Shown piece by piece: positions 2,235 through 56,411 of a stretch of DNA of 64,000 nucleotides. Position 1 is the first letter of the stretch. Each line of letters opens with the position of its first letter. This DNA comes from Alphaproteobacteria bacterium (GTDB lineage: Bacteria; Pseudomonadota; Alphaproteobacteria; CAAHEQ01; UBA3637). The stretch is from NCBI GenBank assembly GCA_015062385.1, contig SUUT01000003.1, positions 76,066-140,065 of the forward strand, given 5' to 3'. The notes under the pieces are model-generated. The model was not told the DNA's origin, searched no databases, and saw only the letters and a program-made list of their open reading frames with translations. A program made the position numbers and the translations under genes.

Positions 2235-4883
2235 ATGAGTCAGAACATTACCGCTCAGGTTCGTAAAAAATTTATTGATTATTTTCAAAAACAAGATCAT
2301 GTTATTGTGCCGGCCAGTTCATTGGTTCCTAAAAATGATCCGACTTTGATGTTTACCAATTCCGGTATGGTACAGTTTAAAAATTATTTTACAGGTGCAG
2401 AAAAAGCTCCGTTTTTGCGAGCAGCAACCGTTCAAAAATCTGTACGGGCAGGGGGTAAACATAATGATTTGGATAATGTCGGTTACACAAAGCGACATCA
2501 TACCTTTTTTGAAATGCTCGGTAATTTTTCTTTTGGAGATTATTTTAAAGAAAAAGCCATTTATTATGCATGGGAATTATTAACAAAAGAAATCGGTTTG
2601 GATAAGTCAAAACTTTTGGTGACAGTTTATCACACAGATGATGAAGCGTTTGATTTATGGAAAAAAATTGCCGGTTTTTCAGATCGTGATATTATTCGGA
2701 TTGCAACAAAAGATAATTTTTGGCAAATGGGGGATACCGGACCATGCGGACCGTGTTCTGAAATTTTTTATGATCACGGGGAACAGTATTGGGGCGGTCG
2801 TCCGGGAACACCGGAAGAAGATGGTGATAGATTTATTGAAATTTGGAATTTGGTTTTTGATCAATATGAAGACTTACCTTCCGGAGAAAGAATTAGTATT
2901 CCTAAAAAATGTATTGATACTGGTTCAGGGTTAGAACGTGTCAGTGCTATTTTGCATGGAACAAATGATAATTATGGTATTGATATTTTTACTTCTTTAA
3001 TTGAAAATGCAGCAGAATTGGCACATGTGGATCCGTATGGTGAAAGCAAAACATCTTTACGGGTTATTGCCGATCATTTGCGGTCAGCATCGTTTTTGTT
3101 GGCTGATGGAGTTATGCCTTCCAATGAAGGACGGGGTTATGTTTTACGGCGGATTATGCGTAGAGCTATGCGTCATGCTCATTTAATCGGATGTAAAGAA
3201 CCGTTAATGTATCAATTGGTTCCGAATTTAATTAATACAATGGGGGAGGCTTATCCGGAGTTAATTAAAAATCAACAGTTGATTGTTGAAGCACTAAAAA
3301 TGGAAGAAGAAAAATTTAAGCAGACATTAGATAAAGGATTAAAATTATTGGCAGACGAAACTGTTTCATTAAATAGTGGTGATTCTCTATCCGGTGATGT
3401 AGCCTTCAAATTATATGATACGTATGGATTTCCATTGGATTTAACGCAAGATGCTCTGCGTTCCAAAGGAATTATGGTTGATACGGACGGATTTAATCAA
3501 GCAATGGAAAAACAACGGGCAGAAGCTCGTAAATCATGGGCAGGTTCCGGAGATAGTGCTGATGAAAAAATCTATTTTCAAATTGCCGATAAAACTGGTT
3601 CTACTGAATTTTTGGGATATGATTCGGATGAAGTTGAAGCACAAATTGTTTCCTTGCTTCAAAACGGAGAAGAAGTAAATGCTGTTGGTAAAGGGATGAC
3701 AGTTTCTGTTATTGCCAATCAAACACCATTTTATGGGGAAATGGGTGGACAAATTGGGGATACCGGTACAATTAAAACTGCAACGGCATTGTTGACAGTG
3801 ACGGATACGGTACGAAAAGCCGATTCTGCTTTAATTGTTCATATCTGCAAAGTTGAAGAAGGAACGGTTTGTGTTGGCGATACAGGATTATTTGCTATTG
3901 ATTCAAAACGGCGGTTTAGTATTCGGGCACACCATTCGGCAACGCACCTTTTGCAGGCAGCTTTACAAAAAGTACTTGGAAATCATGTTCACCAAAAGGG
4001 GTCATTAGTTATGGCAGACGGATTTAGATTTGACTTTACTTATCCAAAGGCAATGACAAATGAACAAATTATAGCAGTTGAACAATTAGTCAATGATATG
4101 ATTTTATCCAATGTGCCTGTTATTACGGAATTGATGACTCCGGAAGCAGCAGTTGAACAAGGGGCAATGGCATTGTTTGATGAAAAGTACGGTGAAACAG
4201 TTCGTGTTGTTTCGATGGGGATTGGAGATAATCGTTATTCTTGTGAATTATGCGGGGGGACCCATGCTCGTGCAACAGGGGATATCGGTTTATTTAGATT
4301 GATTTCAGAATCCGGTATTTCTGCCGGTGTACGACGGATTGAAGCTGTTGTCGGAAAAAGTGCTCTTGCATTAATGCAACGTCAAAATAATATTATTGAA
4401 ACGGTTATGTCTTTATTGAAATCAACGGGTACAGATGATATGCTTGCCAAAGTGACAGCCTTGCAAGAGGACAAAAAACATTTGGAAAAAGAAGTTGTTG
4501 ATTTGCGACGTAAGGTTGCTATGGGCGGGGCTTCTGGAAGTCAAACGGGACAAGATGTAATGACTGTAAATGGCACTTCATTTATTGGAAAGATTTTACC
4601 TGATACGCCGGCGAAGGAATTGAAACCGCTGGTTGATGAGTTTAAAAAGAAAATCGGTAGTGGTGTAATTGCTTTAATTGCTTCATTTGAAGAAAAAGTA
4701 TCTGTTGTAGTGGGTGTGACGTCAGATTTAACGGACAAATATAATGCTGTTGATTTTGTACGTTTAGCAGCAGGAATTGTTGGTGGTAAGGGCGGTGGTG
4801 GTCGTCCGGATATGGCTCAGGCCGGCGGTTCGGATGTTTCTAAAATGCAGAACGCCCTTCAAAAAATTCAGGAAAATTTATAA
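2235..4883 (+). CDS. alaS: alanine--tRNA ligase
   Basis: 882 aa. N-terminal class II core (FTNSGMVQFK), editing-domain HSATHLL and CGGTH motifs, C-terminal GGGGGRPDMAQAGG. Confidence 0.97.
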   Translation: MSQNITAQVRKKFIDYFQKQDHVIVPASSLVPKNDPTLMFTNSGMVQFKNYFTGAEKAPFLRAATVQKSVRAGGKHNDLDNVGYTKRHHTFFEMLGNFSFGDYFKEKAIYYAWELLTKEIGLDKSKLLVTVYHTDDEAFDLWKKIAGFSDRDIIRIATKDNFWQMGDTGPCGPCSEIFYDHGEQYWGGRPGTPEEDGDRFIEIWNLVFDQYEDLPSGERISIPKKCIDTGSGLERVSAILHGTNDNYGIDIFTSLIENAAELAHVDPYGESKTSLRVIADHLRSASFLLADGVMPSNEGRGYVLRRIMRRAMRHAHLIGCKEPLMYQLVPNLINTMGEAYPELIKNQQLIVEALKMEEEKFKQTLDKGLKLLADETVSLNSGDSLSGDVAFKLYDTYGFPLDLTQDALRSKGIMVDTDGFNQAMEKQRAEARKSWAGSGDSADEKIYFQIADKTGSTEFLGYDSDEVEAQIVSLLQNGEEVNAVGKGMTVSVIANQTPFYGEMGGQIGDTGTIKTATALLTVTDTVRKADSALIVHICKVEEGTVCVGDTGLFAIDSKRRFSIRAHHSATHLLQAALQKVLGNHVHQKGSLVMADGFRFDFTYPKAMTNEQIIAVEQLVNDMILSNVPVITELMTPEAAVEQGAMALFDEKYGETVRVVSMGIGDNRYSCELCGGTHARATGDIGLFRLISESGISAGVRRIEAVVGKSALALMQRQNNIIETVMSLLKSTGTDDMLAKVTALQEDKKHLEKEVVDLRRKVAMGGASGSQTGQDVMTVNGTSFIGKILPDTPAKELKPLVDEFKKKIGSGVIALIASFEEKVSVVVGVTSDLTDKYNAVDFVRLAAGIVGGKGGGGRPDMAQAGGSDVSKMQNALQKIQENL

Positions 4884-4903
4884 TTTTTAATAAATAATTT
4901 TTT

Positions 4904-4937
4904 GAACCTCTTTTGTTTTTAACAAAGGAGGTTTTTC
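4904..4937 (+). terminator. rho-independent terminator after alaS
   Basis: Hairpin aacctcttttgtt/aacaaaggaggtt followed by a T-run. Confidence 0.55.
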
Positions 4938-4946
4938 CTTATCTGT

Positions 4947-5120
4947 AAAAAAAGGGACGTATAAATGCAACACTTTTTTTCACATTTTGGTATTTTTTTT
5001 GATTTTAACTAACCAATTCAATAAAAACAATAATCTTTCATTTTTTTTAGAAACCGATTTTACCGATTCGAAGCGGGAAAAAAAGGTCCCTTTTATTACA
5101 CTCACTTTATAAATGCAACT
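4947..5120 (+). promoter_or_regulatory. conserved 5' cassette of the pilin-like gene family (copy 1)
   Basis: Near-identical ~175-bp sequence lies upstream of all four paralogues, in the same orientation relative to each gene (4947-5120, 12135-12308 rc, 25092-25260, 58286-58452). Confidence 0.8.
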
Positions 5121-5141
5121 TTATGATGTGAGGAGAAGATT

Positions 5142-7355
5142 ATGCGAATCAAACCGAATGAACACGGACGGAGTATGGTAGAAATCCTTGGGGTTTTGGC
5201 AATTATCGGGATTTTATCAATCGGCGGAATGGCGGGCTATCAATATGCATATTCATCATATCAAGCGGGACAGATTCAAGATGTTGTCAGTAAGGCTAAA
5301 TTATTGGCAACACAAAATAATCGTTCTTCGCATGTAAAAGAAGTACGGCGTTTTGTGGAAAATATGTTATCTAAGTATAAACCGGCTGATACGACACCAA
5401 TGGTTACACACCGTGACGGGAAATATATTGTCGATTTGTTTAACATCTCTGATTCGGTTTGTGAAAAACTCCAAAACAGACGGGATATATTCAATTCTAT
5501 GCGAATTGGTATGACACCGGAAGCGTGTACAACAGCTGAAATGAGTATGCAATTTATGTTTGACAGTATTGTCATCGGGGGAAGCAGTTCCGGGGGAGCG
5601 GAAAGCGGATATGATGACCCGAACAATCCGGATATAGGACGATGTCCGGATAAACAAGTCTGGCGACAAAAGGAAGACGGGACATATGGCTGTGTTTGTC
5701 GGCATGCATATGAATATGGAGAAGATTGTACCCGATGTGAACCGCCTCGCAGTTGGAATCAAGGTAATCAGAGTTGCCAATGTCCGGCAGATAAACCGAT
5801 ATGGGAATATGGTGTCTGTAAATGTATAGCCGATACAGACTGTCAATACAGTGGCACGGGTTTTTGTTGTGATGATACGGAACAAGTGTGTCGACAATGT
5901 GATGAAACGGATTGTGATAAAGCCAAAGGATTAACATTGGCAGATGGACGGTGTGTTTGTTCGGGACGGAAAGAATGGCGACAAGATGAGGGGGATTCTG
6001 AACCGAGTTGTAAATGTCCCGTTAATACGCCAACAGAAGCAAATTCTAAAACGTGCGAATGTCCGGACGGAAAAGATAATGTTGATGAGGACGGAGACGG
6101 GATGAACGAATGTGTCACATCTTGTCCGAGTGATACGGGATTTACGGGATTGAGAAATCGCACGACAGGGAATTGTTTATGTGATACGAGTAAAGGATAC
6201 AAGGCTGAATCGGAAACGGTCGGAGGGGTACAAACGTGCGTGTGTGATGACACACAGTCATATTATGAAAACACAAGTGGAGGATGTACAAAATGTTTTC
6301 GTACAACAAAAGAATGGTGTGAAATTCAGAATAAATCATGGTTAGATGTTGATTGCAACAGTATGAATGAAGAAGTTTGGGGATGTCGAATATATAAAAA
6401 AACATCAGAAGGTACATTTATGTATAATCCTTCCACAAAAAAATATTGTGAAGGAAAATTTGAAGTTTTAGTAAAAGATGAGAATGGTAAATTTGTATGC
6501 ACGAATGCTTGTGGTACGGCATATGGAACCGGTGGAACAGGAAAGGGCAATCGCTATAATTCAAATGGATGGTGTGGTTGTGTTCACTTTACTGTTTGGG
6601 AAAACGAAGAATGTGTTAATAAATGTAGTAATGGAATGTTATGGAATGGAAAATGTACACCTTGTCGAACAGGACACTGGACAACAGATGGTATTAAATG
6701 TAATAGTGGTTGCAATGATATTATGAGTGGACCATTCGGAACGGCATTTTCTTATCAACAATGGTTAAGAAAAACAGATAAAGCTACTTGTCATCCTAAT
6801 GAAGATGATGGTATTTCCGGTCGTGCTTTTCAATCAACGGATCCAAATTCACCGTGTTTTTACGGTAAGGGCTGTTATGTAATAAGTCAAAATTTAGCAA
6901 CATGTACATATGGTAATATTATTACGGAAGATTGCAAATGTTCAACCGGTGGGAGTGTTGGTCAATATTGTTGTTCGGCATCAACATATCCGACATCAAC
7001 GGGGTGTGTTTCTTGTCCGATAGGTCAAGTGCCAAACTCTACCCGTACAGGATGTACAATGTGTGAGCCGAACAAAATTACACAAAACGGAAAATGTGTT
7101 AAATGTGATAAAGGATATTATCCGAGCAGTCAACAAAACCGGTGTTTGGCTTGTCCGGCAGACAGAACAACCGATGAAGACGGGTTAACGTGTAGCGTTT
7201 GTGTGGATAGTTTAAAAGTGTTTAATATGATAACAAATAAGTGCGAATGTAAAAACGGTTATGAAGAAAATCCGGTTAACGGAAGTTGTATTTTGTTTGA
7301 GGATGAGATGGAAGAAAGCGAAGTATCTGAAAGTGCTGAAATATATATTAATTAA
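5142..7355 (+). CDS. giant cysteine-rich protein with type IV prepilin-type N-terminal leader
   Basis: 737 aa. N-terminus MRIKPNEHG/RSMVEILGVLAIIGILSIGG has Gly at -1, Glu at +5 and a hydrophobic helix. The rest is dense in Cys with many CxxC and CxC pairs. RBS gaggag upstream. Confidence 0.85.
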   Translation: MRIKPNEHGRSMVEILGVLAIIGILSIGGMAGYQYAYSSYQAGQIQDVVSKAKLLATQNNRSSHVKEVRRFVENMLSKYKPADTTPMVTHRDGKYIVDLFNISDSVCEKLQNRRDIFNSMRIGMTPEACTTAEMSMQFMFDSIVIGGSSSGGAESGYDDPNNPDIGRCPDKQVWRQKEDGTYGCVCRHAYEYGEDCTRCEPPRSWNQGNQSCQCPADKPIWEYGVCKCIADTDCQYSGTGFCCDDTEQVCRQCDETDCDKAKGLTLADGRCVCSGRKEWRQDEGDSEPSCKCPVNTPTEANSKTCECPDGKDNVDEDGDGMNECVTSCPSDTGFTGLRNRTTGNCLCDTSKGYKAESETVGGVQTCVCDDTQSYYENTSGGCTKCFRTTKEWCEIQNKSWLDVDCNSMNEEVWGCRIYKKTSEGTFMYNPSTKKYCEGKFEVLVKDENGKFVCTNACGTAYGTGGTGKGNRYNSNGWCGCVHFTVWENEECVNKCSNGMLWNGKCTPCRTGHWTTDGIKCNSGCNDIMSGPFGTAFSYQQWLRKTDKATCHPNEDDGISGRAFQSTDPNSPCFYGKGCYVISQNLATCTYGNIITEDCKCSTGGSVGQYCCSASTYPTSTGCVSCPIGQVPNSTRTGCTMCEPNKITQNGKCVKCDKGYYPSSQQNRCLACPADRTTDEDGLTCSVCVDSLKVFNMITNKCECKNGYEENPVNGSCILFEDEMEESEVSESAEIYIN

Positions 7356-7445: not shown

Positions 7446-8495
7446 ATGAAAAAATTATGCCTTTTATTGTTGACAACGGCTCTTTCTCTACCTGCTTTTG
7501 CCGGTTTTGTTGAAGGAGAACAAGCATTTAAAGACCAGCATTATTCGCAAGCATTTTCAGAATTTTTACCATTGGCAAATGCCGGTGATTTTCGTTCACA
7601 ATACTATGTCGGATATTTGTATGTTAACGGATACGGTGTAACACAAAATAAAAAAGAGGGATTGCGATATCTGCAAATGTCCATTGATCAAAATTATGAT
7701 ATGGCTCAGGCTTTAATGGCTTACTTATATTCAGAAGGGCAACTTGTTCCGAAAGACAAAAAGAAAGCGATTGAATTATATCAACAAGCAGCTCGTCAGA
7801 ATAATATTTCAGCCAATTTAAATTTAGGCGTTATGTATTATATGGGCGATTCGGTTGCACGTGATTATAAAACTGCATTAGATTATTTTCAAAAAGTTCC
7901 ATTGGATCAACAACCGATTGTCAGTAGATATTTAGGAGATATTTATTTAAATAATGCTACATTAAGAGATTATAATAAAGCATTATTTTATTATGAAGTG
8001 TCTGCTCGTCAAAATGATTTAAGTTCTTATTATAATTTGGGCGAAATATATAAGAAGGGTTTAGGTGTTGGGCAAGATATGAATAAAGCCATAAATTATT
8101 ACAAATATGCGGCAACACAAAATTATGGTCCGGCACAATATATGTTAGGTATTATCCATGCCAATGGTGAAGGTGTGACTAGAGATATTTATAAAGCATT
8201 TGCATGGTTTCAATTGGCAGAAGAACAAGGATTGACTATTGCCGGAGAAGCAAAAGAAAAATTAGAAAAAAATATGTCTTTATCAGATATGGACATGGCT
8301 CGCAGACAAGTTGTTTTAATTCAACAAAATGAAATGGGTAAAGTCGAACCGCCATTTCAGGATATGGTTGCAACCAAGGCAATGGAAAATGCTACCGGAA
8401 GTACTGCACTTACTGCTGCAGGAGCAACAGCCGGTGCTGTTGCAGGTAAAAAAGTAACAACTAAAAAACGAGTTTTACGTAGACGTAGGAGATAA
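7446..8495 (+). CDS. Sel1-like repeat (SLR/TPR) protein, secreted
   Basis: Signal peptide, then about seven repeats of the Sel1 pattern (A..Y..AA.QG...AQ..LG.MY..G.GV..D). Basic RRRRR tail. Confidence 0.85.
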   Translation: MKKLCLLLLTTALSLPAFAGFVEGEQAFKDQHYSQAFSEFLPLANAGDFRSQYYVGYLYVNGYGVTQNKKEGLRYLQMSIDQNYDMAQALMAYLYSEGQLVPKDKKKAIELYQQAARQNNISANLNLGVMYYMGDSVARDYKTALDYFQKVPLDQQPIVSRYLGDIYLNNATLRDYNKALFYYEVSARQNDLSSYYNLGEIYKKGLGVGQDMNKAINYYKYAATQNYGPAQYMLGIIHANGEGVTRDIYKAFAWFQLAEEQGLTIAGEAKEKLEKNMSLSDMDMARRQVVLIQQNEMGKVEPPFQDMVATKAMENATGSTALTAAGATAGAVAGKKVTTKKRVLRRRRR

Positions 8496-9751: not shown

Positions 9752-12109
9752 TTAAATTGAACTACCATTCAAAACACAGTATTGTCCATCTAATGTCCGA
9801 TTAATGCAACTACACTTTGTTTCATCTCCTCCAACATCAATCGGTAGTGGTTCATTACATGGATGACAAATACCATTTTTGTCTTCTAGTGGTGCAATTT
9901 CCGAACAATAATCTCTTATACAAGAATTTACATTTAAACTTCTATTTCCACAAATATTGGAACACCTATATGTTGAATAAATTGCTTCTTGATATACGCT
10001 TTCATTATAATTGCAGGCGTAGCATTGTCCGTCGTATCGTGCTAATGGTTTATCCGCAACTGTTGTGCCGGTAACGCCACATAGAGCCGACCACGAACTA
10101 TTACCCCATGTTCCAACGATATACCGTTTCGGACAAGCTTTTTGAGCCTCTTCTTCTACGCCTTTTACATTAACACCGGCTTCTTCTTCACAGGAATAAC
10201 ATTTTCCGTCTTTATCTTTTAATGGTTTTCCGGTTGGGCAATCTTTTAAGACACAATAACCATTTTCCATTTTTCTATTCGGACAAACAGTGCTGCATTC
10301 TCCATTAATTGCATCGGGTGATACAGCTTGGTTATAATAACAATCGTGACAAGTGCCATTTGCATCTATAATTGGTTTTGGTTCTTCTCCTTCTAATTTA
10401 GGACATTTTGGATAACAATGATTAACACTTCCGTTTGAACGTTCATTTTTACATACGGATAAGCATTTATATTGCGAATAAATTGCTTCTTGATATACGC
10501 CATCATTATAATTACAAGCATAGCATTGTCCGTCATATCGTGCCAATGGTTTATCCGCAACTGTTGTTCCGGCAACGCCACATAGAGCCGACCACGAACT
10601 ATTACCCCATGTTCCAACGATATACCGTTTCGGACAAGCTTTTTGAGCCTCTTCTTCTACGCCTTTTACATTAACACCGGCTTCTTCTTCACAGGAATAA
10701 CATTTTCCGTCTTTATCTTTTAATGGTTTTCCGGTTGGGCAATCTTTTAAGACACAATAACCATTTTCCATTTTTCTATTCGGACAAACAGTGCTGCATT
10801 CTCCATTAATTGCATCGGGTGATACAGCTTGGTTATAATAACAATCGTGACAAGTGCCATTTGCATCTATAATTGGTTTGGGTTCTTCTGCTTCTAATTT
10901 AGGACATTTTAGGTAACAATGATTAACACTTCCGCATGAACGTTCATTTTTACATACGGATAAGCATTTATATTGCGAATAAATCGCTTCTTGATATACT
11001 TGACCACTATAATTACATGCATAACATTGTCCGTCGTATCGTGCTAATGGTTTATCTGCAACCGTTGTTCCGGCAACACCACATAGAGCCGACCACGAAC
11101 TACCACCCCATGTTCCAACGATATATCGTTTTGGACAAGCTTTTTCAGCCGAATTTTCTACGCCTTTTACATTAACACCTGTTGCTGTATCACAAGTATA
11201 ACATTTACCATTTGTATCCATTAAAGGTTTATTTTCATTACTCGTTCCTTTTAATCCGCACTTTAAAACACAGTATTTTTTAGAACCGGATACTAACCGA
11301 TTGGAACAAACCGCACAATTTTCTACCATTCCCTCCACATTCACTTGTGTTTCATCATCACACGCATAACAATTTCCATCTTTATCTCTAAGTGGCTTAT
11401 CTGCCGGACAACATTTATTGTTTGAATCGCAACACTCTCCATTTTCTCCGACATGTGTACAACACAAGCCACTTACGATACTCTCTTTTAAGCAACACAT
11501 CCAAGAATTGGGATTATCATAGCTTTTGGCACATCCGCTATTTTCAGGACACATTGTTTTACATAAGCCTTGTTCACACGTGGCACATTTGCAATCATTA
11601 TCCCGATAACACCGCCATGTTTCATGTCGTTCTTCTTCCTCTATATATTTCTTTTCCGTTAAGTCATCTTTAAATTCATAGGCTAGTGTGACAGTTTCCG
11701 CTTCATTACAAATGCTTGCATCAATTTCATATTCGGTTGTGCCGACAAAAATAGAATAAGGGATTGTCCATTGTGATTTTAACAGTTGCCGACAAACACC
11801 ACTGGGAACTTCATCTAAAAACACTTCAAAGTAATCTGCGTACTGCGGGCTGATACGAGCTCGAATCGGGTAGCCCATACGGGTATGGTCACCCATTTCA
11901 TCTACGGATAATTCAATTATTCCATTCAACATTTGACGGGATAAATCAGCGACTCGAATCTGTAATTCATTCAGTGTTTCATTTGCCCGATATTTATCCA
12001 TAGCGAACCGATATCCCATTATACCACCGACACTTAATACGCCGGTAACGGCAAGCACACCAAGCATTTCTACCATACTCCGACCGATTTCATTGAATTT
12101 AACTTTCAT
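9752..12109 (-). CDS. giant cysteine-rich protein with type IV prepilin-type leader (paralogue 2)
   Basis: 785 aa. MKVKFNEIG/RSMVEMLGVLAVTGVLSVGG leader. Conserved ~140-aa head, then Cys-rich modules including internal 167-aa tandem repeats. Confidence 0.85.
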   Translation of the reverse strand: MKVKFNEIGRSMVEMLGVLAVTGVLSVGGIMGYRFAMDKYRANETLNELQIRVADLSRQMLNGIIELSVDEMGDHTRMGYPIRARISPQYADYFEVFLDEVPSGVCRQLLKSQWTIPYSIFVGTTEYEIDASICNEAETVTLAYEFKDDLTEKKYIEEEERHETWRCYRDNDCKCATCEQGLCKTMCPENSGCAKSYDNPNSWMCCLKESIVSGLCCTHVGENGECCDSNNKCCPADKPLRDKDGNCYACDDETQVNVEGMVENCAVCSNRLVSGSKKYCVLKCGLKGTSNENKPLMDTNGKCYTCDTATGVNVKGVENSAEKACPKRYIVGTWGGSSWSALCGVAGTTVADKPLARYDGQCYACNYSGQVYQEAIYSQYKCLSVCKNERSCGSVNHCYLKCPKLEAEEPKPIIDANGTCHDCYYNQAVSPDAINGECSTVCPNRKMENGYCVLKDCPTGKPLKDKDGKCYSCEEEAGVNVKGVEEEAQKACPKRYIVGTWGNSSWSALCGVAGTTVADKPLARYDGQCYACNYNDGVYQEAIYSQYKCLSVCKNERSNGSVNHCYPKCPKLEGEEPKPIIDANGTCHDCYYNQAVSPDAINGECSTVCPNRKMENGYCVLKDCPTGKPLKDKDGKCYSCEEEAGVNVKGVEEEAQKACPKRYIVGTWGNSSWSALCGVTGTTVADKPLARYDGQCYACNYNESVYQEAIYSTYRCSNICGNRSLNVNSCIRDYCSEIAPLEDKNGICHPCNEPLPIDVGGDETKCSCINRTLDGQYCVLNGSSI
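9983..11175 (-). repeat. in-frame tandem repeat, period 501 bp, ~2.4 copies
   Basis: The sequence starting ccacatagagccgaccacgaac at 10077 recurs at 10578. Partial copies flank both sides. Units are nearly identical by eye. Confidence 0.9.
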
Positions 12110-12134: not shown

Positions 12135-12308
12135 GTTGCATTTATAAAGTGAGTGTAATAAAAGGGACCTTTTTTTCCCGCTTCGAATCAGAAGAATCAG
12201 ATTTTTGAGAAAATGAAAGATTATTGTTTGAGTTGAATTAGTTAGTCAAAATCAAAAAAATTGCTAAAATGTGAAAAAAAATGTTGCATTTATACGTCCC
12301 TTTTTTTA
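12135..12308 (-). promoter_or_regulatory. conserved 5' cassette of the pilin-like gene family (copy 2)
   Basis: Reverse complement aligns with 4947-5120 along its whole length. Confidence 0.8.
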
Positions 12309-12331
12309 CGGATAAAAATACCAAAAACTTT

Positions 12332-12380: not shown

Positions 12381-13472
12381 CTATTCACAAACTTCTTTGT
12401 CATTAACAAGTTTACAAGTTTGAATAACTTTTCCGGCACTATCAAATGTTTGAGAAATTTGTTTTTTGCCATCTTCAAAAACGGTTCGTCTTAACAAAAT
12501 GCCATTTTTATCAAATGTTTGTGATAATCCGTGTGGTTTTCCGTTCCAAAATTCATATTCCTCAGATACAACATTATTAGCACTAAAAACTCGATATGTG
12601 CCGGAAATCGGTTGTTTTGTTTCTTTATCATAAACCAATCCATTTTGCTGATACGTATTTTGAGGCGTATGAATCATCGTTTTTGAGTTTAATTCAATGA
12701 TTTGTTTTGCCGTTAAAGGAACTTCTTTGCCGTCTTGTACAAGAATACCACTGATAACTTGTCCGTCATTATAAATTCTTTTTTGTGCCAATGTTCCATC
12801 TTCATTGAAATTAACACTTTCGCCATCGAGTCTATTTTTAACAAAATGCATCTCAAACTGAGGATTGCCGTTCGGATAAAATGTTTTTGAAACACCTTCA
12901 CGTTCATTGTTCACAAAATGACTAACTGAACGAATTGTTCCGTCTGCATAATATTCTCTTGCCTCGCCATTTAATAAATTATTTTTATAAAGTGATTCGG
13001 ATTTTGTTTTTCCGGAATCATAATAGTTAATCCGAGGACCATTCAACAAATCATCCTGATAAATTTCTGTTAAATACAGTTTTCCGTTTGGATAATATGC
13101 TGTAAATTGTCCGTTTAATTTGTTATTTTTATAGGTTGCTTCAGCAATTAAACGTCCGTTTTCATCATACTTTTTAAATGCCCCATCTTTAATGTTGTTT
13201 TTGAATACGATTGTATGTTCAGTTGCTCCATTTTCGAAAAATCCGACTGATTCGCCATTTAAAACTCCGTTTTCAAAGGTACTGGCTGCTCGTTTTGCTC
13301 CACTTGGAAAGGTTCGAATCAATGTTCCTGTTAAGGGTTGTTGTGTTTCTTTTAAATAAAAAATTTCTCCTTTTTTTTCAACAGCCGATGCCGAATAATC
13401 TACTGCAAGTGCAATTGAACTGAAACAAGTACTTGCAAATAAAGCAAGAGACAGAAGAACGGTATTTTTCAT
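12381..13472 (-). CDS. MORN-variant (YwqK-like) repeat protein, secreted
   Basis: Signal peptide plus about ten repeats of the pattern Y..NG.....(Y/F).(N/D)..(L/K).G. Confidence 0.75.
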   Translation of the reverse strand: MKNTVLLSLALFASTCFSSIALAVDYSASAVEKKGEIFYLKETQQPLTGTLIRTFPSGAKRAASTFENGVLNGESVGFFENGATEHTIVFKNNIKDGAFKKYDENGRLIAEATYKNNKLNGQFTAYYPNGKLYLTEIYQDDLLNGPRINYYDSGKTKSESLYKNNLLNGEAREYYADGTIRSVSHFVNNEREGVSKTFYPNGNPQFEMHFVKNRLDGESVNFNEDGTLAQKRIYNDGQVISGILVQDGKEVPLTAKQIIELNSKTMIHTPQNTYQQNGLVYDKETKQPISGTYRVFSANNVVSEEYEFWNGKPHGLSQTFDKNGILLRRTVFEDGKKQISQTFDSAGKVIQTCKLVNDKEVCE

Positions 13473-14413: not shown

Positions 14414-14712
14414 AAAAAAAGACAGGGTATCCTGTTGCTGGGAACCCTGCAAACCCCACCGCCCCGCTCAATATGGAGACGGAATTAATGGCCAGAAGCT
14501 ACTCAAATTAAGCAGCTAAAGCGGCCGGAGCAAAATTATCATTTGCGTTTATATTTTCAGCCCGATAACGGTGGTACAATACCGGATACAAGAGAAAGCC
14601 TTTATTATGCGTGTCGATCCTATTTCACCCCCATTAGCTTATTTGGTGGAGGTGTCGGGTACCGCCCCCGAGTCCACAGACATCTATTCTGCTTTTCGTT
14701 TAGCATCATAGC
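14414..14712 (-). ncRNA. ssrA: two-piece (circularly permuted) tmRNA
   Basis: On the minus strand the T-arm TCGGG-GGCGGTA-CCCGA and 3' acceptor strand CACCTCC-ACCA end at 14644. An 11-nt linker follows. GGGGGTG at 14632-14626 pairs with CACCTCC. The tag ORF GCA AAT GAT AAT TTT GCT CCG GCC GCT TTA GCT GCT TAA (14546-14508) encodes ANDNFAPAALAA. A terminal hairpin with T7 ends at 14414. The 5' end is approximate. Confidence 0.85.
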
Positions 14713-14791
14713 CGATTAATATCGGCAAATATTATTATAACAATATTTTATTTGAAAAACAAGTTTTATATGCGATTAATGTATAGAAAAA

Positions 14792-25043: not shown

Positions 25044-25091
25044 TATGCAAGTACCAAAAGTCTTTTTTATCTGCTTAAATTTTCTATCTGC

Positions 25092-25260
25092 AAAAAAAGG
25101 GACGTATAAATGCAACACTTTTTTTCACATTTTGGGATTTTTTTTAATTTTAGATAAATTATTCAATTAAAACAACAATCTTTTATTTTTTAAAAAATTT
25201 GATTTTTCCGATTCGAATAGGGAAAAAAAGGTCCCTTTTATTACACTCACTTTATAAATG
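25092..25260 (+). promoter_or_regulatory. conserved 5' cassette of the pilin-like gene family (copy 3)
   Basis: Aligns with 4947-5120. Confidence 0.8.
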
Positions 25261-25282: not shown

Positions 25283-27199
25283 ATGCAATCTAAAATCAAT
25301 GAAATCGGTCGGAGTATGGTGGAAATGCTGGGAGTACTTGCTGTTATCGGTATTTTAAGTGTTGGGGGCATAATGGGTTATAAATTTGCCATGCTTAAAT
25401 ATCGTGTCAATGAAACCGTCAATGAACTCAATATACGGACAAATGAAATTTATCAATATTTTTCCGTTCAGGAAAATGAAAATTTACCGACACAAACGGT
25501 CGGAGCAGAAATTAAAATGTCACTTGGAGAAACAATGCGAACCGGTTATCCGATAAGTGCATTTGTTTCAGCCAATAACGAATCGTTTTTTGAGTTGGAA
25601 CTTCAACAAGTTGAAACAGAAATGTGTCAACAGTTGATGCAAATTTATAAGGTGCCGGATGTTATATTCGTTAACGAACAACAATATTTAAATGATTTAT
25701 CATTATGTGGCAACAAAGATTTTGTTAAATTAAATTTTATTTATAATAAGACATTCAACAAAAAAACGGCATGTGATAATCGCAGTGAATTTGATTCGAT
25801 ATCTTTAAAATGTCGATGTAAAGGGGATTCCTATTTGGATATTGTGAGTAATACATGTAAATGTGCCGGTGGAGAAATATGGAGTTCAAGTGAGCAAAAG
25901 TGCATTGTTTCTGTCTGTGAAGAAGGATATTTTGAAACACAACAAGACGGATGCCAACCGTGCAACGGTTCGGAAACTTATCTGATATCCAAAAATCAAG
26001 AGCAATATTGTAATGCATGTTCGCCAGAAACAAAGAGAGTTGTTTATAAATATGCAAGTGGTTTGTTATATTGTGCAGTTAAGTGTCCACAAGATATGTT
26101 TTGGGACGGGAATCGCAGAAAGTGTCAATTATGTACATTTTCCGATTTTGGTGGCAGTTATGATGAGATATCAAAAGCCGAATGTTTAGCTTGTTCAAGT
26201 ACTTCACGAGAATTATTTCGAAAAACTGAATGTCGTTTATCCGATTGGTGCCCATCATCTGAGCGAAAATTCTTTGGTGTAGATGAACAATCTACAAACA
26301 TGCGGTCTTATTTTAAATGTATGTCTTGTGATACAATAAAACAACTGTTATTACAAGGAGATTCCAAGGCAATAGCAGCGTGTAATGCTTGTGTAGATGA
26401 AAATAACCAATCAAACAGACAAGTTATTAATGATTATTGTGTTAAAAAAACGTGTTCCGATGGAGAATTTATGGGAGCTGATGGTATTTGTTATTCTTGT
26501 TCAGATGAACGGTCTGTTGCTGTTTTGCCTCAACAGGAAGAAGCGTGTACATCATCTGCTTGTCAACGCAGGGTTGTAAACGGATATTGTCAAATACAAG
26601 ATTGTCCATCGGAAACACATATACGATTATCAAATGGTGATTGTTATTCTTGTTCGGAAGAGAGAGGATTCATCAGTACCGAAGAAGAGTGTGATAAGTG
26701 TGGCAATAAACGGGGATATGTTATTGCTCACAATGGTCAGATTGGATATTGTCGGATTAATAATTGTGCTAAAGGAAGTAGTTATCCTTATAATCTTCCA
26801 GATAATTTGAATTCCTGCATTAGTTGTCAAAAGCCTTGGTATACCGGGGAAACGGCATATAGTATGGAATATTGTGAAGCCTGTGGAGATGGATATTATG
26901 TTTCCGGTAATGTTTGTTATGGACCTGATTTTTGTCAGACGGGTTCGCAACTGATATCAAACAGTGGTACAGAATGTATTGATTGTACTGTTGTTGAAAA
27001 AATTTATGTTGGTATGCATGAAAAACATCGTACATATAGTGACAATTGTGTAACTGTCAATCGTTTTATTGTTGAAGATTATTCTTATCGGTGTGATACG
27101 AGAGAAAATATACCGGTCTTTTTAGAGGCTGATAAAAAATCCTGTATCAATTGTCGCATACGTTCCGTTGTAGATGATGTTTGTGTGTTGACACAATAA
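25283..27199 (+). CDS. giant cysteine-rich protein with type IV prepilin-type leader (paralogue 3)
   Basis: 638 aa. MQSKINEIG/RSMVEMLGVLAVIGILSVGG leader. At least 13 CxxC pairs (CQPC, CNAC, CQLC, CLAC, CMSC, CYSC...). Confidence 0.85.
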   Translation: MQSKINEIGRSMVEMLGVLAVIGILSVGGIMGYKFAMLKYRVNETVNELNIRTNEIYQYFSVQENENLPTQTVGAEIKMSLGETMRTGYPISAFVSANNESFFELELQQVETEMCQQLMQIYKVPDVIFVNEQQYLNDLSLCGNKDFVKLNFIYNKTFNKKTACDNRSEFDSISLKCRCKGDSYLDIVSNTCKCAGGEIWSSSEQKCIVSVCEEGYFETQQDGCQPCNGSETYLISKNQEQYCNACSPETKRVVYKYASGLLYCAVKCPQDMFWDGNRRKCQLCTFSDFGGSYDEISKAECLACSSTSRELFRKTECRLSDWCPSSERKFFGVDEQSTNMRSYFKCMSCDTIKQLLLQGDSKAIAACNACVDENNQSNRQVINDYCVKKTCSDGEFMGADGICYSCSDERSVAVLPQQEEACTSSACQRRVVNGYCQIQDCPSETHIRLSNGDCYSCSEERGFISTEEECDKCGNKRGYVIAHNGQIGYCRINNCAKGSSYPYNLPDNLNSCISCQKPWYTGETAYSMEYCEACGDGYYVSGNVCYGPDFCQTGSQLISNSGTECIDCTVVEKIYVGMHEKHRTYSDNCVTVNRFIVEDYSYRCDTRENIPVFLEADKKSCINCRIRSVVDDVCVLTQ

Positions 27200-27385: not shown

Positions 27386-27598
27386 TTAACTGCAATATTT
27401 TTGCCGACATACGTCTTGTGAATAATGCCATTCATTCATACATGTATTCATACAATTATCATCTAAATTTTTAAAATATAATCCAATTGCAAAAGTGATT
27501 GTTCCAATGAGTGCAAAAAACATAAGAACAAAACTAAATAAAATAGTAAAAAACAATGGAATATTCTTATGGATTGTACTTTTGACTGATGAGGTCAT
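27386..27598 (-). CDS. small single-TM protein with C-terminal Cys motif (putative partner/immunity of the SAA-like protein)
   Basis: 70 aa from the internal ATG (MTSSVKS...) with RBS aaggaaa. TM helix, then CMNTCMNEWHYSQDVCRQKYCS. Overlaps the 3' end of the upstream gene by 32 nt. Confidence 0.6.
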   Translation of the reverse strand: MTSSVKSTIHKNIPLFFTILFSFVLMFFALIGTITFAIGLYFKNLDDNCMNTCMNEWHYSQDVCRQKYCS

Positions 27599-28278
27599 GA
27601 CAATTTCCTTGTGGATATGTTCGTCCGATGTTTCTTCCATAAATATTAGCCTCCATATCAGCATCACTTGCTTGTGATGTGTTTTCATTAAATAATACAT
27701 CATAACTTTCTTTAAGTCCAGATAATATTTGCGAAACTTTTTCTGATTTACTACCATGTTGTGCCATCAAACAATTTATCATAGCATGTTTGTATTTGTC
27801 ATTTACATTCATTGGTTCATATTGGTTGTTATAATTAATAATATTTTTAAAACTGTTAATATATCCATTTGGGTTTTGGATGTCTGAATTAATATATCCT
27901 AATCCATAACCTAAATAATATCCCGGATTAATAGATAAATCATTTGTTTTTAAGTTTCTATTATTTGGCAATATTGTAGAATTAAATTTTTCTGTATTTA
28001 GATTTTTTGTTTTATATTCGCTTCCACTGAATCCATAATTATTTTTCAGGTGAAACACTCCAAAAGTCAGAGCCATATTGTTTATAATTACCTGTTATAC
28101 CCATATTGCGTTGTTGTTGCATGAGTTCTTCTTCCCGTTTAACTCGTTTGTCTTGAGATTCTACTTCTTCTCTTGTTGTAAATTGAGAATGATCTACACC
28201 ATAAGTATCATATCCGTTCTCTAAAGTTCTGTATCCCAAGGGGGATTGGTAGTCGTTATAAAATTGATTCTCTGTCAT
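27567..28278 (-). pseudogene. SAA-like domain protein, frameshifted paralogue
   Basis: ORFs 28039-28278 and 27567-28076 are two frames of one gene. The first 75 aa match 29433-30113 with two substitutions. A 1-nt longer A-run (T5 on + at 28042-28046) breaks the frame. The C-terminus has DKYKHAMINCLMAQHG...SDADMEANIYGRNIG. Confidence 0.75.
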
Positions 28279-29432: not shown

Positions 29433-30113
29433 TTACTTTATAATATACTGTTCCAGCATGTCTTCACAATTTCCATTTGGATATTTTGTTCCGATTAATC
29501 GCCCGATTTTATTAGCGTAATTATCAGCATTACTTTCATCTACAGTATTTTGTTTAGTTATATATATATCGCTTAATTCTTTTACATCTGAGAACATTGA
29601 TGCTAAATTATGCCCACCATAACCATATTGTGCACTCTTGCAGTTGAGCAATGCATGCTTAAATTTATCTGAAATGTTTTTGTTCTTTAGATTTTTATAT
29701 CCATTTACTATATTTATTCCTCCGGCAAGTGTTGATTTAACAAACGGCAAAGGGGATTGATATTCGGGTTTTATTTCTCCACCTTCTCGTGCAACAATAT
29801 CTTCATAAATGTGCTTCCCTTCTTGTTCGGTTTCCCAATATCTTGGCTTTATTTCACTTCCCTCGAATCCATAGTTATTTTCGGGAGAGGCACTCCAAAA
29901 GTCAGAGCCATATTGTTTATAATTACCCGTTATACCCATATTGCGTTGTTGTTGCATGAGTTCTTCTTCCCGTTTAACACGTTTGTCTTGATATTCTACT
30001 TCTTCTCTTGTTGTAAATTGAGAATGATCTACACCATAAGTATCATATCCGTTCTCTAAAGTTCTGTATCCCAAGGGGGATTGGTAGTCGTTATAAAATT
30101 GATTCTCTGTCAT
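29433..30113 (-). CDS. serum amyloid A (SAA)-like domain protein
   Basis: 226 aa, no signal peptide. The C-terminal ~75 aa (SDKFKHALLNCKSAQYGYGG...FSDVKE...SNADNYANKIGR) align with the vertebrate SAA core ([20 protein letters not shown]...ISDARE...SLADQAANEWGR). Confidence 0.7.
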   Translation of the reverse strand: MTENQFYNDYQSPLGYRTLENGYDTYGVDHSQFTTREEVEYQDKRVKREEELMQQQRNMGITGNYKQYGSDFWSASPENNYGFEGSEIKPRYWETEQEGKHIYEDIVAREGGEIKPEYQSPLPFVKSTLAGGINIVNGYKNLKNKNISDKFKHALLNCKSAQYGYGGHNLASMFSDVKELSDIYITKQNTVDESNADNYANKIGRLIGTKYPNGNCEDMLEQYIIK

Positions 30114-33955: not shown

Positions 33956-35641
33956 TTACTGAGTGGATAAGATATTTTGGATAGTTCTTCCAACATAACT
34001 TTTATTACCATACAGTCTTTGACCAATTCCTCTATCTGCCCAACCACAAAGTGCATTTTGGTATTCTGCAGGTATTCTCACTTCTACTGCCTTTGTTTCA
34101 AATGTATGTCTAAATGAATGGAAGACCTTATCTGAACCTGTTATGTCTATTTTATCTAAATATCTTCCAAACCAATGTTGAACAGAATTACTATAACGTC
34201 CCCGTTCTATTTGTGTTAATTCGCTAAATAACTTTTTGGCTTTGTTTTTTCTTTGAAACTCTACATATCTTAAAAATCCTAATTCGATTATTTGAGGGTG
34301 AATGGGTATAATTCTTTCAGATGTCTTGTTTTTAACTGATTTATCTTTGTCATTCCCATGAATAGATATACAGGGTATCCCTTTTTTACTCACAATATCT
34401 GTTACATCTAATTGGCAGATTTCATTTAAACGACATCCATGATATAATGCAATTATCGGAACCCAAAATTTGGCTTGATTGTTTCTCATCTTCGGACTGG
34501 GATATGTCTTGGGATTAAATATCTTATGTAGTTCCGAATTATCAAACGGGTTTCTTGCTTCTTTTTCTATCTTAATCGGTTTATCTATGTAATCATTCAT
34601 ATTGTTTTCAATAATGTCTTCTCGAACTGCATATCTCATAAAGTTGGTAAAGACATTCAGATATCCTTTTATTGTTTGCTTCCCTAATGCTTTATTTTCT
34701 GATTTCGTTAATATCTCTTTTATGGTTTTACCTTTTTCTATCTCAGTATGCCATTTTTTAGGAACTTGATAAATCTTTTCACTTAATTTGCGACAGTCTT
34801 GTTTTGTTATTTCTTCTATATATTCTCTTCCCATAATTAAAAAGGCTAATTTAATTGACAAATACATAGTCCTGATGCGTTCGTCTGGTATTCCTTTTAA
34901 ATTCTTTTTATTCTGAGCATACTTTTTAAAGAACTTTTCCCAATGGGTTTTGGTCATGGATTTAGTCAGACGTTCTGTGGTCTTCATGTTATCATAACTT
35001 TTAAGTAAAGTTTTAACCTTGGGATTGCTTGGGTTATAAGGTTTGTCTTTCTTAATTGCTTTGATACTTTTTTCTGCATATCTTTCTAATGCAGAAACAT
35101 GACTGCCAAAACTTTTAAACCATTCATACCCATCTTTTGCTTTGTCTTCTAAACCCAGTTCAATCTCTTTTTCCTTTAACTTGGTATAGGTTGTGCGAAG
35201 AGTAATATTGGCTTGAGAGTTTTCAACCAAACTCCTTAAATAGTCCAATATCATTTGAACCATTAACTCTTTTCTTTGTTCTGTGGGTAGTTTGATGTCT
35301 TCAATGGTTTTCTTGCCTTCTACAATATTCTCAGCATTTTCTTCCAAAAAGTATTGAATTTGACTAAGTCTTGCCAGCAATATCTTATCAACATCATTTT
35401 CATCCAGAACAACTTTGTTTTCTTTGTTAATTTTCATAATAATATCCTCAAATACATCCATAAATGTTTGTAAATGAGCAATTTCTGTTCGCCATCTGGC
35501 AACAGCAAGTTTGTAATCTGATGTGTCTAATGTATAACAAATCTCTTTACATTTTGCCAATGTCCAATACTTTCTGGGTACACCGACCCTAAAATAAAAA
35601 GCACGACCTTTGACAATCAGTCCCGGATATCTTTGAACCAT
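33956..35641 (-). CDS. tyrosine-type site-specific integrase
   Basis: 561 aa. N-terminal GRAFYFRVGVPRKYW arm-type domain. Catalytic region LYHGCRLNE (Arg), HSFRHTF (H-x-x-R), C-terminal Tyr region. Confidence 0.85.
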   Translation of the reverse strand: MVQRYPGLIVKGRAFYFRVGVPRKYWTLAKCKEICYTLDTSDYKLAVARWRTEIAHLQTFMDVFEDIIMKINKENKVVLDENDVDKILLARLSQIQYFLEENAENIVEGKKTIEDIKLPTEQRKELMVQMILDYLRSLVENSQANITLRTTYTKLKEKEIELGLEDKAKDGYEWFKSFGSHVSALERYAEKSIKAIKKDKPYNPSNPKVKTLLKSYDNMKTTERLTKSMTKTHWEKFFKKYAQNKKNLKGIPDERIRTMYLSIKLAFLIMGREYIEEITKQDCRKLSEKIYQVPKKWHTEIEKGKTIKEILTKSENKALGKQTIKGYLNVFTNFMRYAVREDIIENNMNDYIDKPIKIEKEARNPFDNSELHKIFNPKTYPSPKMRNNQAKFWVPIIALYHGCRLNEICQLDVTDIVSKKGIPCISIHGNDKDKSVKNKTSERIIPIHPQIIELGFLRYVEFQRKNKAKKLFSELTQIERGRYSNSVQHWFGRYLDKIDITGSDKVFHSFRHTFETKAVEVRIPAEYQNALCGWADRGIGQRLYGNKSYVGRTIQNILSTQ

Positions 35642-44396: not shown

Positions 44397-46034
44397 CTAC
44401 CCCTCATTTTCTTCTTCAAATTCAAAGTCTTCATCTTTTGGGGTGTAGTCTTTGAGGTTAAGAGGGTATCCGGCACGACCCCATTCGCATTTGGATAAAA
44501 TGGCTGTTGGAATCTTTTTAACCGTTATATTCGGATAATTGTTTGGATTTCCCATAAAGGCTTTGCAACAGATTAACAGGTTATTATCCCCCACTTCTTC
44601 GGCAATTTTAGCTAAAGAAGTTTCTTGTAAGCCCATTGTTGTGGTATAGATAAAACTCTTTTCGGATGAATAGCCTTGTTTCCAATACTTTTCTGTATCG
44701 GGTTTATAGTGATAGCCCAAAACCTTACACATGGCTTCGGCGAGCATATCGGCATTATATTCGGGGGAAATAATATCCATACCAAAAGAATCTTTGACGA
44801 TTAAAGAAGATGCTAATTCATAGAATTTGAACCCACCACCACAAGTCCAACCGGTTGCTTTGGTAACACCGCCGGCATCTTCACCTTTAATAACTTTTTG
44901 AAGTCTTGGTAAACAATGGGTATAGATATGGTCTCCCATTTCTACACCAATCCATCTACGTCCCATTTTATGAGCAACAGCACAAGTTGTTCCTGACCCC
45001 AAGAAACTATCAAGAACGATGTCGCCCGGGTTTGTTGCTAAATGTAAAATTCTATTGATAAGTTTCTCAGGTTTTGGGGTATCAAAAACATTCACAGAAT
45101 TAAAAGCAATCACTTCTTTTTTGGCATCTTGATTATGTCCAACTTCTTGATGTGTCCAAATGGTCATTGATGTCATACCATCTTTTACTTCTGATAAAAA
45201 ACGTTTAATTCTCGGAACACTATCTCCCTTGGGACCAAACCATATTCTGTTATCTTTTATCATATTATCCAGTGTTTCTTTACTTAATCTCCAACTTGTC
45301 CCAACAGGGGGCATAACCTCTCTCCCAGAAGGTGTTGTAATTGAGTATATATCTTTTTCAGTAATACGTTTAACTGAAATATCACCAGATGTCCAAGGTC
45401 CTCTTGGATCATTGTCAGGGTTTTTATAACGAGCATTCATTTCATCTGTTCTTGGAAGTAAATTTGGTTTCCATTCAAATTTATTTTTTGCATAAACCAT
45501 TATAAAATCATGATTGTCTGACAGCCATTTTGCATCATTTTGTGGAGAGAATTTTTTTTGCCAAATAACATTATTTACGAAATTTGCACGACCAAAAATC
45601 TCATCACATAACACTTTACAATAGGCTTGTTCATTATCATCTAATGAAATCCAAATACTTCCATCTTCCGATAACAATCGTCTTAAAATCTCTAATCTAT
45701 CACGCATTAAGGAAAGCCAGATAGAGTGTTCCAAGCCGTCATCATAGTGTTCAAAAGCATTACCTGTGTTATAGGGTGGATCAATATAAATACATTTAAT
45801 CTTACCTGTATAATCTTGTTCTAAAGCCTTTAATGCCAACAGATTATCCCCATGGATGAGCATATTGTCATAAGTTAGCTTGACTTTTTGTTCTTCAAAC
45901 AATCCATTCGGAGTTGTATCAGCTTCATAAGAAAATGACTTTTCTTTATCTTCTAACAAAATGCGAGGTTCCGGATTAAATCTATCCTCTTTCCCCGGCC
46001 ATGTTAACTCTAATCTCGTCAATTTACTTGTCAT
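44397..46034 (-). CDS. mod: Type III R-M DNA methyltransferase (Mod, N6-adenine, beta class)
   Basis: 545 aa. IYIDPPYNTGN catalytic motif upstream of DSFLGSGTT SAM-binding motif. The N-terminus LTWPGKE is typical of Mod. Confidence 0.85.
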   Translation of the reverse strand: MTSKLTRLELTWPGKEDRFNPEPRILLEDKEKSFSYEADTTPNGLFEEQKVKLTYDNMLIHGDNLLALKALEQDYTGKIKCIYIDPPYNTGNAFEHYDDGLEHSIWLSLMRDRLEILRRLLSEDGSIWISLDDNEQAYCKVLCDEIFGRANFVNNVIWQKKFSPQNDAKWLSDNHDFIMVYAKNKFEWKPNLLPRTDEMNARYKNPDNDPRGPWTSGDISVKRITEKDIYSITTPSGREVMPPVGTSWRLSKETLDNMIKDNRIWFGPKGDSVPRIKRFLSEVKDGMTSMTIWTHQEVGHNQDAKKEVIAFNSVNVFDTPKPEKLINRILHLATNPGDIVLDSFLGSGTTCAVAHKMGRRWIGVEMGDHIYTHCLPRLQKVIKGEDAGGVTKATGWTCGGGFKFYELASSLIVKDSFGMDIISPEYNADMLAEAMCKVLGYHYKPDTEKYWKQGYSSEKSFIYTTTMGLQETSLAKIAEEVGDNNLLICCKAFMGNPNNYPNITVKKIPTAILSKCEWGRAGYPLNLKDYTPKDEDFEFEEENEG

Positions 46035-47264: not shown

Positions 47265-47657
47265 TTAATATGGCTCATTATTGATTTTTGATACAAAATC
47301 TTGCAAACGTTCTCGGTCTTCATTTGCTTTGTCCCCTTTAAAATAAATCTCAACAAATGTTATTAGCCGTTTTTCTTCTTCCCATACAAAAACAACTCTA
47401 ATCCCTGATTTTGCTCCTCGCCCTTTTAATGTTCTACATGAAAATTTTCTAACTTTGTTAGATGTGTAGTTTTCATCACAAAATCCTTCTATCAGAACAA
47501 ATGCAGTTGTCGGTTCTCCTTTTTCATAAAAAGTCTCAATGGTATATTTTTTCATATACTCAAAATCTGTTTCCAAAGACTTAAAGCGTTTTAGCAATAA
47601 TTTAAAATCTTTATTAAATTCAGGAAGTTTTGTGTAATTAATCATTTTAATCTTCAT
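47265..47657 (-). CDS. RelE/ParE-superfamily-like toxin (candidate PanT)
   Basis: 130 aa. GAKSGIRVVFVWEEEKRLITFVEIYFKGDKANED resembles the RelE/HigB C-terminal pattern. Overlaps the upstream antitoxin gene by 11 nt. Confidence 0.55.
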   Translation of the reverse strand: MKIKMINYTKLPEFNKDFKLLLKRFKSLETDFEYMKKYTIETFYEKGEPTTAFVLIEGFCDENYTSNKVRKFSCRTLKGRGAKSGIRVVFVWEEEKRLITFVEIYFKGDKANEDRERLQDFVSKINNEPY

Positions 47658-48411: not shown

Positions 48412-48541
48412 TGTAAATCCTTTCATCTTACCACATAATAGTAACATATTTTTTAAAAAATGTCAACAACTATTAACATAAATTTGTTAAATAATGATTA
48501 CATTTTTTGTTTTTTTCATTCTTTTTCAACTTTTTTCTTAA

Positions 48542-56335: not shown

Positions 56336-56352
<17 letters not shown>
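56300..56352. repeat. attR: 53-bp direct repeat overlapping the tRNA-Thr 3' end and its terminator
   Basis: Identical to 33088-33140. Confidence 0.9.

Positions 56353-56411
<59 letters not shown>

Follow-up and report, generated by a model that had tools for sequence, protein, structure and literature searches.

We propose that the short non-coding cassettes found upstream of four pilin-like genes in the 64,000-nucleotide stretch of DNA analysed here (the window) are site-specific inversion switches (invertons), each of which would set the ON or OFF state of the gene downstream of it. We put the probability of this explanation as a whole at roughly 0.6. In the proposed mechanism, strand exchange within 15-bp inverted repeats, by a recombinase whose gene lies elsewhere, flips a 127-bp core that is rich in A/T tracts. 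A -10 hexamer (TACACT) would be fixed in the gene-proximal arm, and a -35 hexamer (TTGCA[A/T]), preceded by an A tract, would sit at one end of the core. Flipping would place the -35 exactly 17 nt upstream of the -10 and turn the gene ON, with a transcript that starts at about 5109-5111 in the first cassette and has a leader of ~32 nt. In the forward state, which is that of 26 of the 28 cassettes surveyed and of all four window copies, CGGGAA would occupy the -35 position and the gene would be OFF. With at least 13 switches per genome, each cell would express few out of many alternative adhesin-like proteins, all with a type IVb pilin domain.

Cassettes in the window

As an earlier note on this DNA had recorded, four cassettes of ~175 bp each stand upstream of four paralogous genes, at 4947-5120 (+), 12135-12308 (-), 25092-25260 (+) and 58286-58452 (+), and their orientation relative to their own gene is identical (4/4). 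The inverted repeat that the note had seen at the two cassette ends was recovered as well, and is longer (15 nt) than described there. For cassette 1, a repeat search placed the distal arm (IRL, TGTAAAAAAAGGGAC) at 4944-4958 (+) and the gene-proximal arm (IRR, GTCCCTTTTATTACA) at 5086-5100 (+), with one mismatch over 15 nt (93% complementarity) and 127 nt between the arms (core, 4959-5085); the same search returned the same geometry for copies 2 and 3. Cassette 2 (12155-12309, -) comprises an IRL at 12296-12309, a core at 12169-12295 and an IRR at 12155-12168. Cassette 3 (25089-25247, +) comprises an IRL at 25089-25103, a core at 25104-25230 and an IRR at 25231-25245, with the candidate -10 at 25242-25247. 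In cassette 4 (58284-58442, +), the IRL (58284-58298), core (58299-58425), IRR (58426-58440) and candidate -10 (58437-58442) also follow the 127-nt spacing, as read from motif coordinates, and the arms are complementary over only ~9 nt, at the inner side of the IRL. All four cassettes are in the forward state. The motifs GGGACGTATAAATGCAAC and AAGGTCCCTTTTATTACACTCA occur exactly four times each in the window, where shuffled sequences lead one to expect none.

The higher conservation of the non-coding over the coding DNA, as claimed in the earlier note, was also confirmed. Pairwise identity among the four 127-bp cores is 83-96%, whereas the four proteins have the N-terminal helix alone in common and are otherwise 23-24% identical. 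Within the cores, AA/TT dinucleotides show a 10.5-bp periodicity (mean z about 7) and the A/T tracts are helically phased. As a sequence feature, this would imply an intrinsic curvature of the DNA, which would help the looping of so short a segment.

Downstream of the core, the second TATAAATGCAAC box is whole in copies 1 (5108-5119, +) and 2 (12136-12147, -) and partial in copies 3 and 4, in agreement with the earlier description. It belongs to the fixed leader and lies at or just past the putative transcription start. We note that this leader box recurs in many related cassettes (L007, L037, L038, L043 and L045), and that in the flipped state it would pair with the -35 box as a 12-nt inverted repeat bracketing the -10.

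Inverted cores in related genomes

A search for further copies, covering the window, four related MAGs and further metagenome contigs, yielded 28 distinct gene-linked cassettes, 16 of which came from a pattern containing TACACTCA. When the right-arm sequence was scanned against one genome per species, 12 contigs matched, and every one belonged to MAG RGIG7750; one additional fragment (P0243) was without a cassette. The orientation census gave 26 forward and two flipped cassettes. Both flipped cassettes (L004 and L010) are in RGIG7750, and both are inverted exactly between the 15-bp inverted repeats TGTAAAAAAAGGGAC and GTCCCTTTTATTACA.

At L004, the cassette lies downstream of alaS exactly like window copy 1, and the DNA between its arms has the opposite orientation. 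When L004 was compared with the window by BLAST, a collinear block (2279-4958, 92% identity) was followed by an inverted block (4944-5100, 84%) and by a second collinear block (5086-5200, 79%). Adjacent blocks overlap by 15 bp at each of both junctions, that is, over the IRL and the IRR of cassette 1, and these overlaps read as the signature of recombination inside the inverted repeats. The alaS locus is forward in the window, in L032 and in L039. The other flipped copy (L010 4990-5155) is the 13th cassette of RGIG7750; it was detected by profile search, is followed by a 693-aa pilin-like gene on the minus strand, and was recognised as flipped from its fixed flanks. Its positional orthologues in two other samples, L043 and L044, located downstream of groES-groEL, are both forward, ~95% identical to L010 through the gene, and show the same 15-bp junction overlaps.

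Two orthologous locus pairs, compared between genomes, differ by a precise inversion of the 127-bp core, and the invertible switch that the earlier note had put forward as a hypothesis is supported by them. The cassettes share two features with invertons, namely inverted repeats flanking a short intergenic segment upstream of a gene, and the occurrence in nature of both orientations at the same locus. Our comparisons indicate that site-specific inversion of these cassettes is very probably real.

All window copies, together with those in all other samples of the window's species, are forward; exact-protein look-ups, in a listing where similar places were merged, returned only forward copies for that species, which is a weak negative result. 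This uniformity would accord with a static shared promoter or operator, or with a structured RNA leader, the flipped contigs then being assembly errors. We consider such a static element very improbable. The 15-bp repeat is shorter than assembler k-mers, which we take to mean that real reads must underlie the flipped junctions, and the same exact junctions appear at two independent loci. A plain shared operator or promoter, which the earlier note had listed as an alternative, leaves the flipped copies unexplained. An RNA element was rejected on the grounds that Rfam was empty at gathering thresholds and that the fold z was -0.85; at E <= 1, Rfam gave chance-level matches only, in the alaS terminator region.

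All copies examined, the most diverged included, have a core length of 127 bp, apart from two in which it is 126 bp. A diverged cassette (L037 137-293, -), which precedes a more divergent pilin-like gene (GRSILEML), has a TATAAT -10 and a 127-bp core between the arms AAAAAAAGGTAC and GTACCTTTTTTT. Both of its arms have changed together (GGTAC / GTACC instead of GGGAC / GTCCC), as would be expected if both crossover regions must match. The junctions themselves form dyads of the pattern 9+2+9, the right junction in the forward state being AAAAAAAGG TC CCTTTTATT and the left junction in the flipped state AAAAAAAGG GA CCTTTTTTT. These dyads may be read as recombinase dimer sites and would fit a 2-bp crossover; examples of the junction sequences expected in the flipped state are AAAGGGACCTTTTTTTCCC and TGCATTTATACGTCCCTTT. 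At another locus (L020 148-230), unrelated sequence stands in place of the left arm and of the core's left half, and the -10 reads TACAGT. This cassette would be unable to invert, and would thus be locked in the forward state.

Proposed promoter and ON/OFF state

The pattern of conservation across the cassettes points to a split promoter, with the -10 fixed in the right arm and the -35 inside the flippable core. In cassette 1, the candidate -10 (TACACT, 5097-5102, +) overlaps the outer end of the IRR; its counterpart in cassette 2 (TACACT, 12152-12157, -) lies slightly outside the range listed for that cassette. Of the right-arm hexamers (positions 12-17), 25 read TACACT and the others TATAAT, TATACT or TACTCT, and positions 12, 13 and 17 (T, A and T, corresponding to T1, A2 and T6 of a -10) are invariant in all 28 cassettes. 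TAnnnT is still kept in the ~14 copies found without the TACACTCA pattern. In the left arm, the mirror positions vary (G/A/T at position 13) and T never occurs at position 17. It should be considered that, as the -10 and the inverted repeat overlap, the needs of the recombinase could account for part of this conservation.

At 17 nt upstream of the -10, the flipped state presents TTGCAA or TTGCAT (14 each) and the forward state CGGGAA. TTGCA is invariant and the adjacent 3 nt, which would belong to the spacer, are free to vary. An A7 tract stands ahead of TTGCA in the flipped state, and presumably resembles the proximal subsite of an UP element. In cassette 1, the putative -35 identified by this census (TTGCAT, 4965-4970, -) lies inside the core and at present points away from the gene. 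When 19 cassettes were flipped in silico and scored, TTGCA[A/T]-17-TACACT (with TATAAT in L014) came out as the best candidate in 18 of them, always at one and the same position; the remaining cassette had been handled on the wrong strand. The mean best promoter score was 9.0 in the flipped state vs. 7.0 for forward matches of heterogeneous position. The junction promoter score alone was matched by 11-28% of shuffles and is not significant, so the promoter argument rests on position and conservation. Similar candidate promoters were also seen at other window genes (e.g., recA, TTGTGT-17-TACACT).

Strong terminators are located directly upstream of the IRL in copies 1 and 2. Since they abut the left arm, transcription must start in or after the cassette in these copies, and a switch composed of an upstream promoter and a terminator in the untranslated region (cwpV-like) was ruled out on the same basis. 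Given inversion, the flipped state is likely to be the ON state through the split promoter, and the forward orientation of all four window copies would probably mean OFF rather than ON.

A promoter wholly inside the element is usual for fimS and the Bacteroides invertons; here, one that fires toward the gene in the forward state would reverse this polarity, with forward ON and flipped OFF. A consensus scan of the forward state did find TTAACT-18-AATAAT on the plus strand, within the core (TTnAnn-18-AAYAAT, ~5005-5034). We nevertheless regard the opposite polarity as unlikely. The G of the internal -35 is not conserved (TTAACT, TTAGAT, TCAAAT, TTCATT and TTAATT), and the internal candidate -10 begins with A. 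The candidate lies in the least conserved block of the core and is destroyed in the diverged L037 copy (AAGAAA), where TTGCAT is kept and TATAAT is present. An internal promoter would also leave unexplained why T, A and T are invariant in the right arm only.

The left TATAAATGCAAC box had been proposed in the earlier note as a -10-like element as well. This is probably not its role, as its three middle bases vary freely and its conserved part, when read from the opposite strand, is TTGCA and fits a -35. Read as a rightward -10, the box has no -35 at 15-18 nt upstream (CCTTAT / CTTATC), and hexamer positions 4-6, the critical last T among them, vary. The split design, if confirmed, would give a very tight OFF state, as a complete promoter would be absent in that state, and would be an unusual design for an inverton.

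Pilin-like genes downstream of the cassettes

The genes that the cassettes would control encode pilin-like proteins of 737 aa (gene 1, 5142-7355, +), 785 aa (gene 2, 9752-12109, -), 638 aa (gene 3, 25283-27199, +) and 685 aa (gene 4, 58479-60536, +). They have a prepilin-like start, G|RSMVEMLGVLA, with Glu at +5, in which G|RSMVE is invariant. The C-terminal regions are Cys-rich; that of gene 1 follows the prepilin-like N-terminal helix, and that of gene 4 matches teneurin-type EGF repeats. Shorter relatives of ~220 aa carry the Pfam domains bundlin (PF05307) and PilS_N (PF08805), and are labelled pseudopilin or PilE by some sources. An AlphaFold model of the first 170 aa of gene 3 (pLDDT 78) had type IVb pilins as its best matches, with the pilus of ETEC (CofA) first, followed by TcpA and S. 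Typhi PilS; the top match had a probability of 0.99 but a weak E-value (0.014). The proteins thus show the traits of type IVb pilin-like proteins, i.e., a prepilin-like N-terminus with Glu5 and, as modelled, a pilin fold, and we describe them as a predicted type IVb pilin-like domain fused to Cys-rich EGF-like repeats. We take this architecture to resemble that of type IVb minor pilins with extra C-terminal domains.

Sel1-repeat and MORN-repeat proteins (7446-8495, +; 12381-13472, -) adjoin pilin-like genes 1 and 2, and their repeats are, like the EGF repeats, eukaryote-like repeat domains. Two short ENA contigs (P0012 and P0014) contain N-terminal fragments in which a copy-4 start is joined to a copy-2-like continuation. 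These may have arisen by recombination in the conserved pilin helix, or else as chimeras of the assembly.

Possible exchange between cassettes

The earlier note had also considered a homology block that supports gene conversion between copies. This alternative does not exclude inversion, and the cores do show concerted evolution: cores 1 and 4 are 96% identical to each other and 82-84% identical to their own positional orthologues. In another sample, the exact copy-4 protein follows a different core, and the upstream gene is likewise another one, mlaC (L040 1303-1476). In another MAG, the gene at the alaS locus is copy-4-like (L039 6003-6175), and one 737-aa gene occurs in two upstream contexts (L045 5800-5975 vs. 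L046 1529-1705). The occurrence of the same or a near-identical gene behind different cores suggests that cassettes at different loci recombine, or that assembly produced chimeras at the repeat.

It is conceivable that the cassette is mainly a homology block for gene conversion or rearrangement, and that the flips are rare by-products without a regulatory role. The likeness of cores 1 and 4 to each other rather than to their positional orthologues, and the recurrence of one gene behind different cores and contexts (L040 vs. window copy 4, L045 vs. L046, and L039), speak for this reading. However, homology alone needs no fixed 127-bp length, no covarying 15-bp arms and no precise flips at two loci, and the coding DNA just downstream is highly diverged. 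We therefore judge a purely homology-based role improbable, and continue to favour the inversion switch.

In a more speculative extension, which we hold only tentatively and as rather less likely than not to be correct in full, the system would provide one-of-many expression of alternative type IVb pilus-tip adhesins. The switches would be invertons of the smallest class, with a curved 127-bp core, a split promoter (-10 outside; -35 and UP-like A-tract inside) and swaps of whole genes between sites, like a shufflon that acts at promoters.

Candidate recombinases

Searches for serine and tyrosine recombinases near the cassettes (phmmer and HMM) returned only a partial resolvase-like ORF on L013 (1515-1856, -). 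This ORF is cut by the contig end and is apparently without a C-terminal HTH. On its short contig it stands ~650 bp away from a cassette, on the upstream side, with an XRE-type HTH gene between them. No serine invertase was found in the window. The two tyrosine recombinases of the window are both in a low-GC island that ends at a tRNA-Thr. One is a 561-aa integrase inside the island (33956-35641). The other is a 193-aa enzyme (55488-56069, +; Pfam PF00589) that consists of the catalytic domain only, is of the FimB/FimE size class, and sits at the island edge next to the tRNA-Thr, 2.2 kb from cassette 4 with the tRNA-Thr and ruvA between. It has a near full-length match to the NCBIfam FimB-type 'tyrosine-type DNA invertase', far below the family cut-offs.

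The 193-aa enzyme is, on sequence, a weak candidate for the invertase. Its homologues (70-93% identical, always 193-194 aa) are found in mobile defence islands of other MAGs, with no cassette within 10 kb, and the enzyme is absent from the flanks of all other cassettes. The copy-4 orthologue in RGIG7750 is without synteny to the window in the region upstream. With its homologues lying away from cassettes and synteny lacking in RGIG7750, a link between this enzyme and the cassettes is unsupported. The invertase probably acts in trans and is encoded elsewhere, and the cassette sequences would fit a serine or a tyrosine recombinase alike.

Four AATGTTAAAAAA motifs in alternating orientation occupy the intergenic DNA just upstream of the 193-aa recombinase gene (55277-55412). 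They could be operator or recombination sites of this recombinase, and their likeness to the cassette arms is weak. Another motif upstream of the same gene, TGTWAAAAAAG, was set aside as too weak (three occurrences in the window vs. 0.6 expected).

Organism and genomic surroundings

The G+C content of the window is ~33%. The related loci are all from MAGs of uncultured 'Alphaproteobacteria bacterium' and from gut metagenomes, the one stated source being a water-buffalo rectum sample (RGIG7750). The window also encodes a permuted two-piece tmRNA of the alpha type (14417-14766, -) with the tag peptide ANDNFAPAALAA. The low-GC region (26-33%) from ~27200 to 56411 looks like a genomic island that ends at the tRNA-Thr (56336-56411). 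Besides the 561-aa integrase, it contains an SNF2 helicase (40724-43621), a DNA methylase (44397-46034), an HTH-Panacea antitoxin-like protein (47647-48447) and a ResIII/TnsA-like protein (49384-52098), as well as a Bro-N protein, ankyrin-repeat proteins and a DUF6876 protein. Two ORFs in the low-GC stretch directly after pilin-like gene 3 (27567-28076, -; 29433-30113, -) match Serum amyloid A (PF00277; E 2.7e-8 and 5e-12), a domain that is mainly vertebrate.

For the low-GC, uncultured gut Alphaproteobacteria of ruminants and other animals, our analysis would provide a concrete and testable phase-variation system, i.e., a putative phase-variation switch in a lineage and a gene family where none was described. 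The switch would control a large family of proteins that have eukaryote-like EGF repeats and a pilin domain as their anchor; variable adhesins, or surface proteins for immune evasion, are plausible roles for them. Its compact signature (a 15-bp repeat, a 127-bp core and a fixed -10) would allow ON and OFF states to be counted directly in metagenomic reads.

Comparison with known systems

The general kind of system, an invertible promoter switch, is already known, and what is possibly new is the split promoter and the swapping of genes between sites. Searches of full-text literature turned up no account of the cassettes, no inverton reported from this lineage and no inverton promoter of the split type.

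The cassettes resemble E. coli fimS, with its recombinases FimB and FimE, in their short inverted repeats, promoter-bearing segment and association with a pilus gene. FimB and FimE are tyrosine enzymes of ~200 aa, and the 193-aa enzyme of the window matches them in size. fimS, 314 bp long and with 9-bp repeats, exists as a single locus with an internal promoter and adjacent recombinase genes, whereas the present system counts 13 or more loci in a genome, its core is 127 bp long and, at the loci studied here, no tyrosine invertase gene adjoins the switch. In the R64 shufflon (Rci) and the Moraxella Piv system, DNA inversion also varies the specificity of a type IV pilus adhesin or pilin. The inverted DNA is coding in those systems, whereas here the inversion is wholly upstream of the start codon, with both junctions upstream of the ribosome-binding site and ATG.

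The capsular invertons of B. fragilis are served by a trans-acting serine invertase, Mpi, have their promoter wholly inside the element and target polysaccharide operons. Like them, our cassettes are short segments at dispersed loci with a common, near-identical inverted repeat, and the B. fragilis recombinase is encoded away from most of its sites, as would be the case here. The repeat sequences are different, and pilin-like genes take the place of the polysaccharide operons. In M. penetrans, the invertible element is reportedly 135 bp long with 12-bp repeats.

The B. fragilis polysaccharide promoters are switched by a global invertase (PMC2268961), and the mpl (P35) lipoproteins of M. penetrans are described as many surface-protein genes that each have their own invertible promoter (Horino et al. 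2003, as cited in PMC2268961). The mpl family shares with our cassettes a surface-protein family scattered over the chromosome, one short invertible element per gene and independent switching, and its recombinases are thought to act on several loci. The differences are that the phylum and the sequences are unrelated, that the genes here encode type IVb pilin-like proteins and not lipoproteins, and that the promoter of our cassettes is apparently split over the recombination site.
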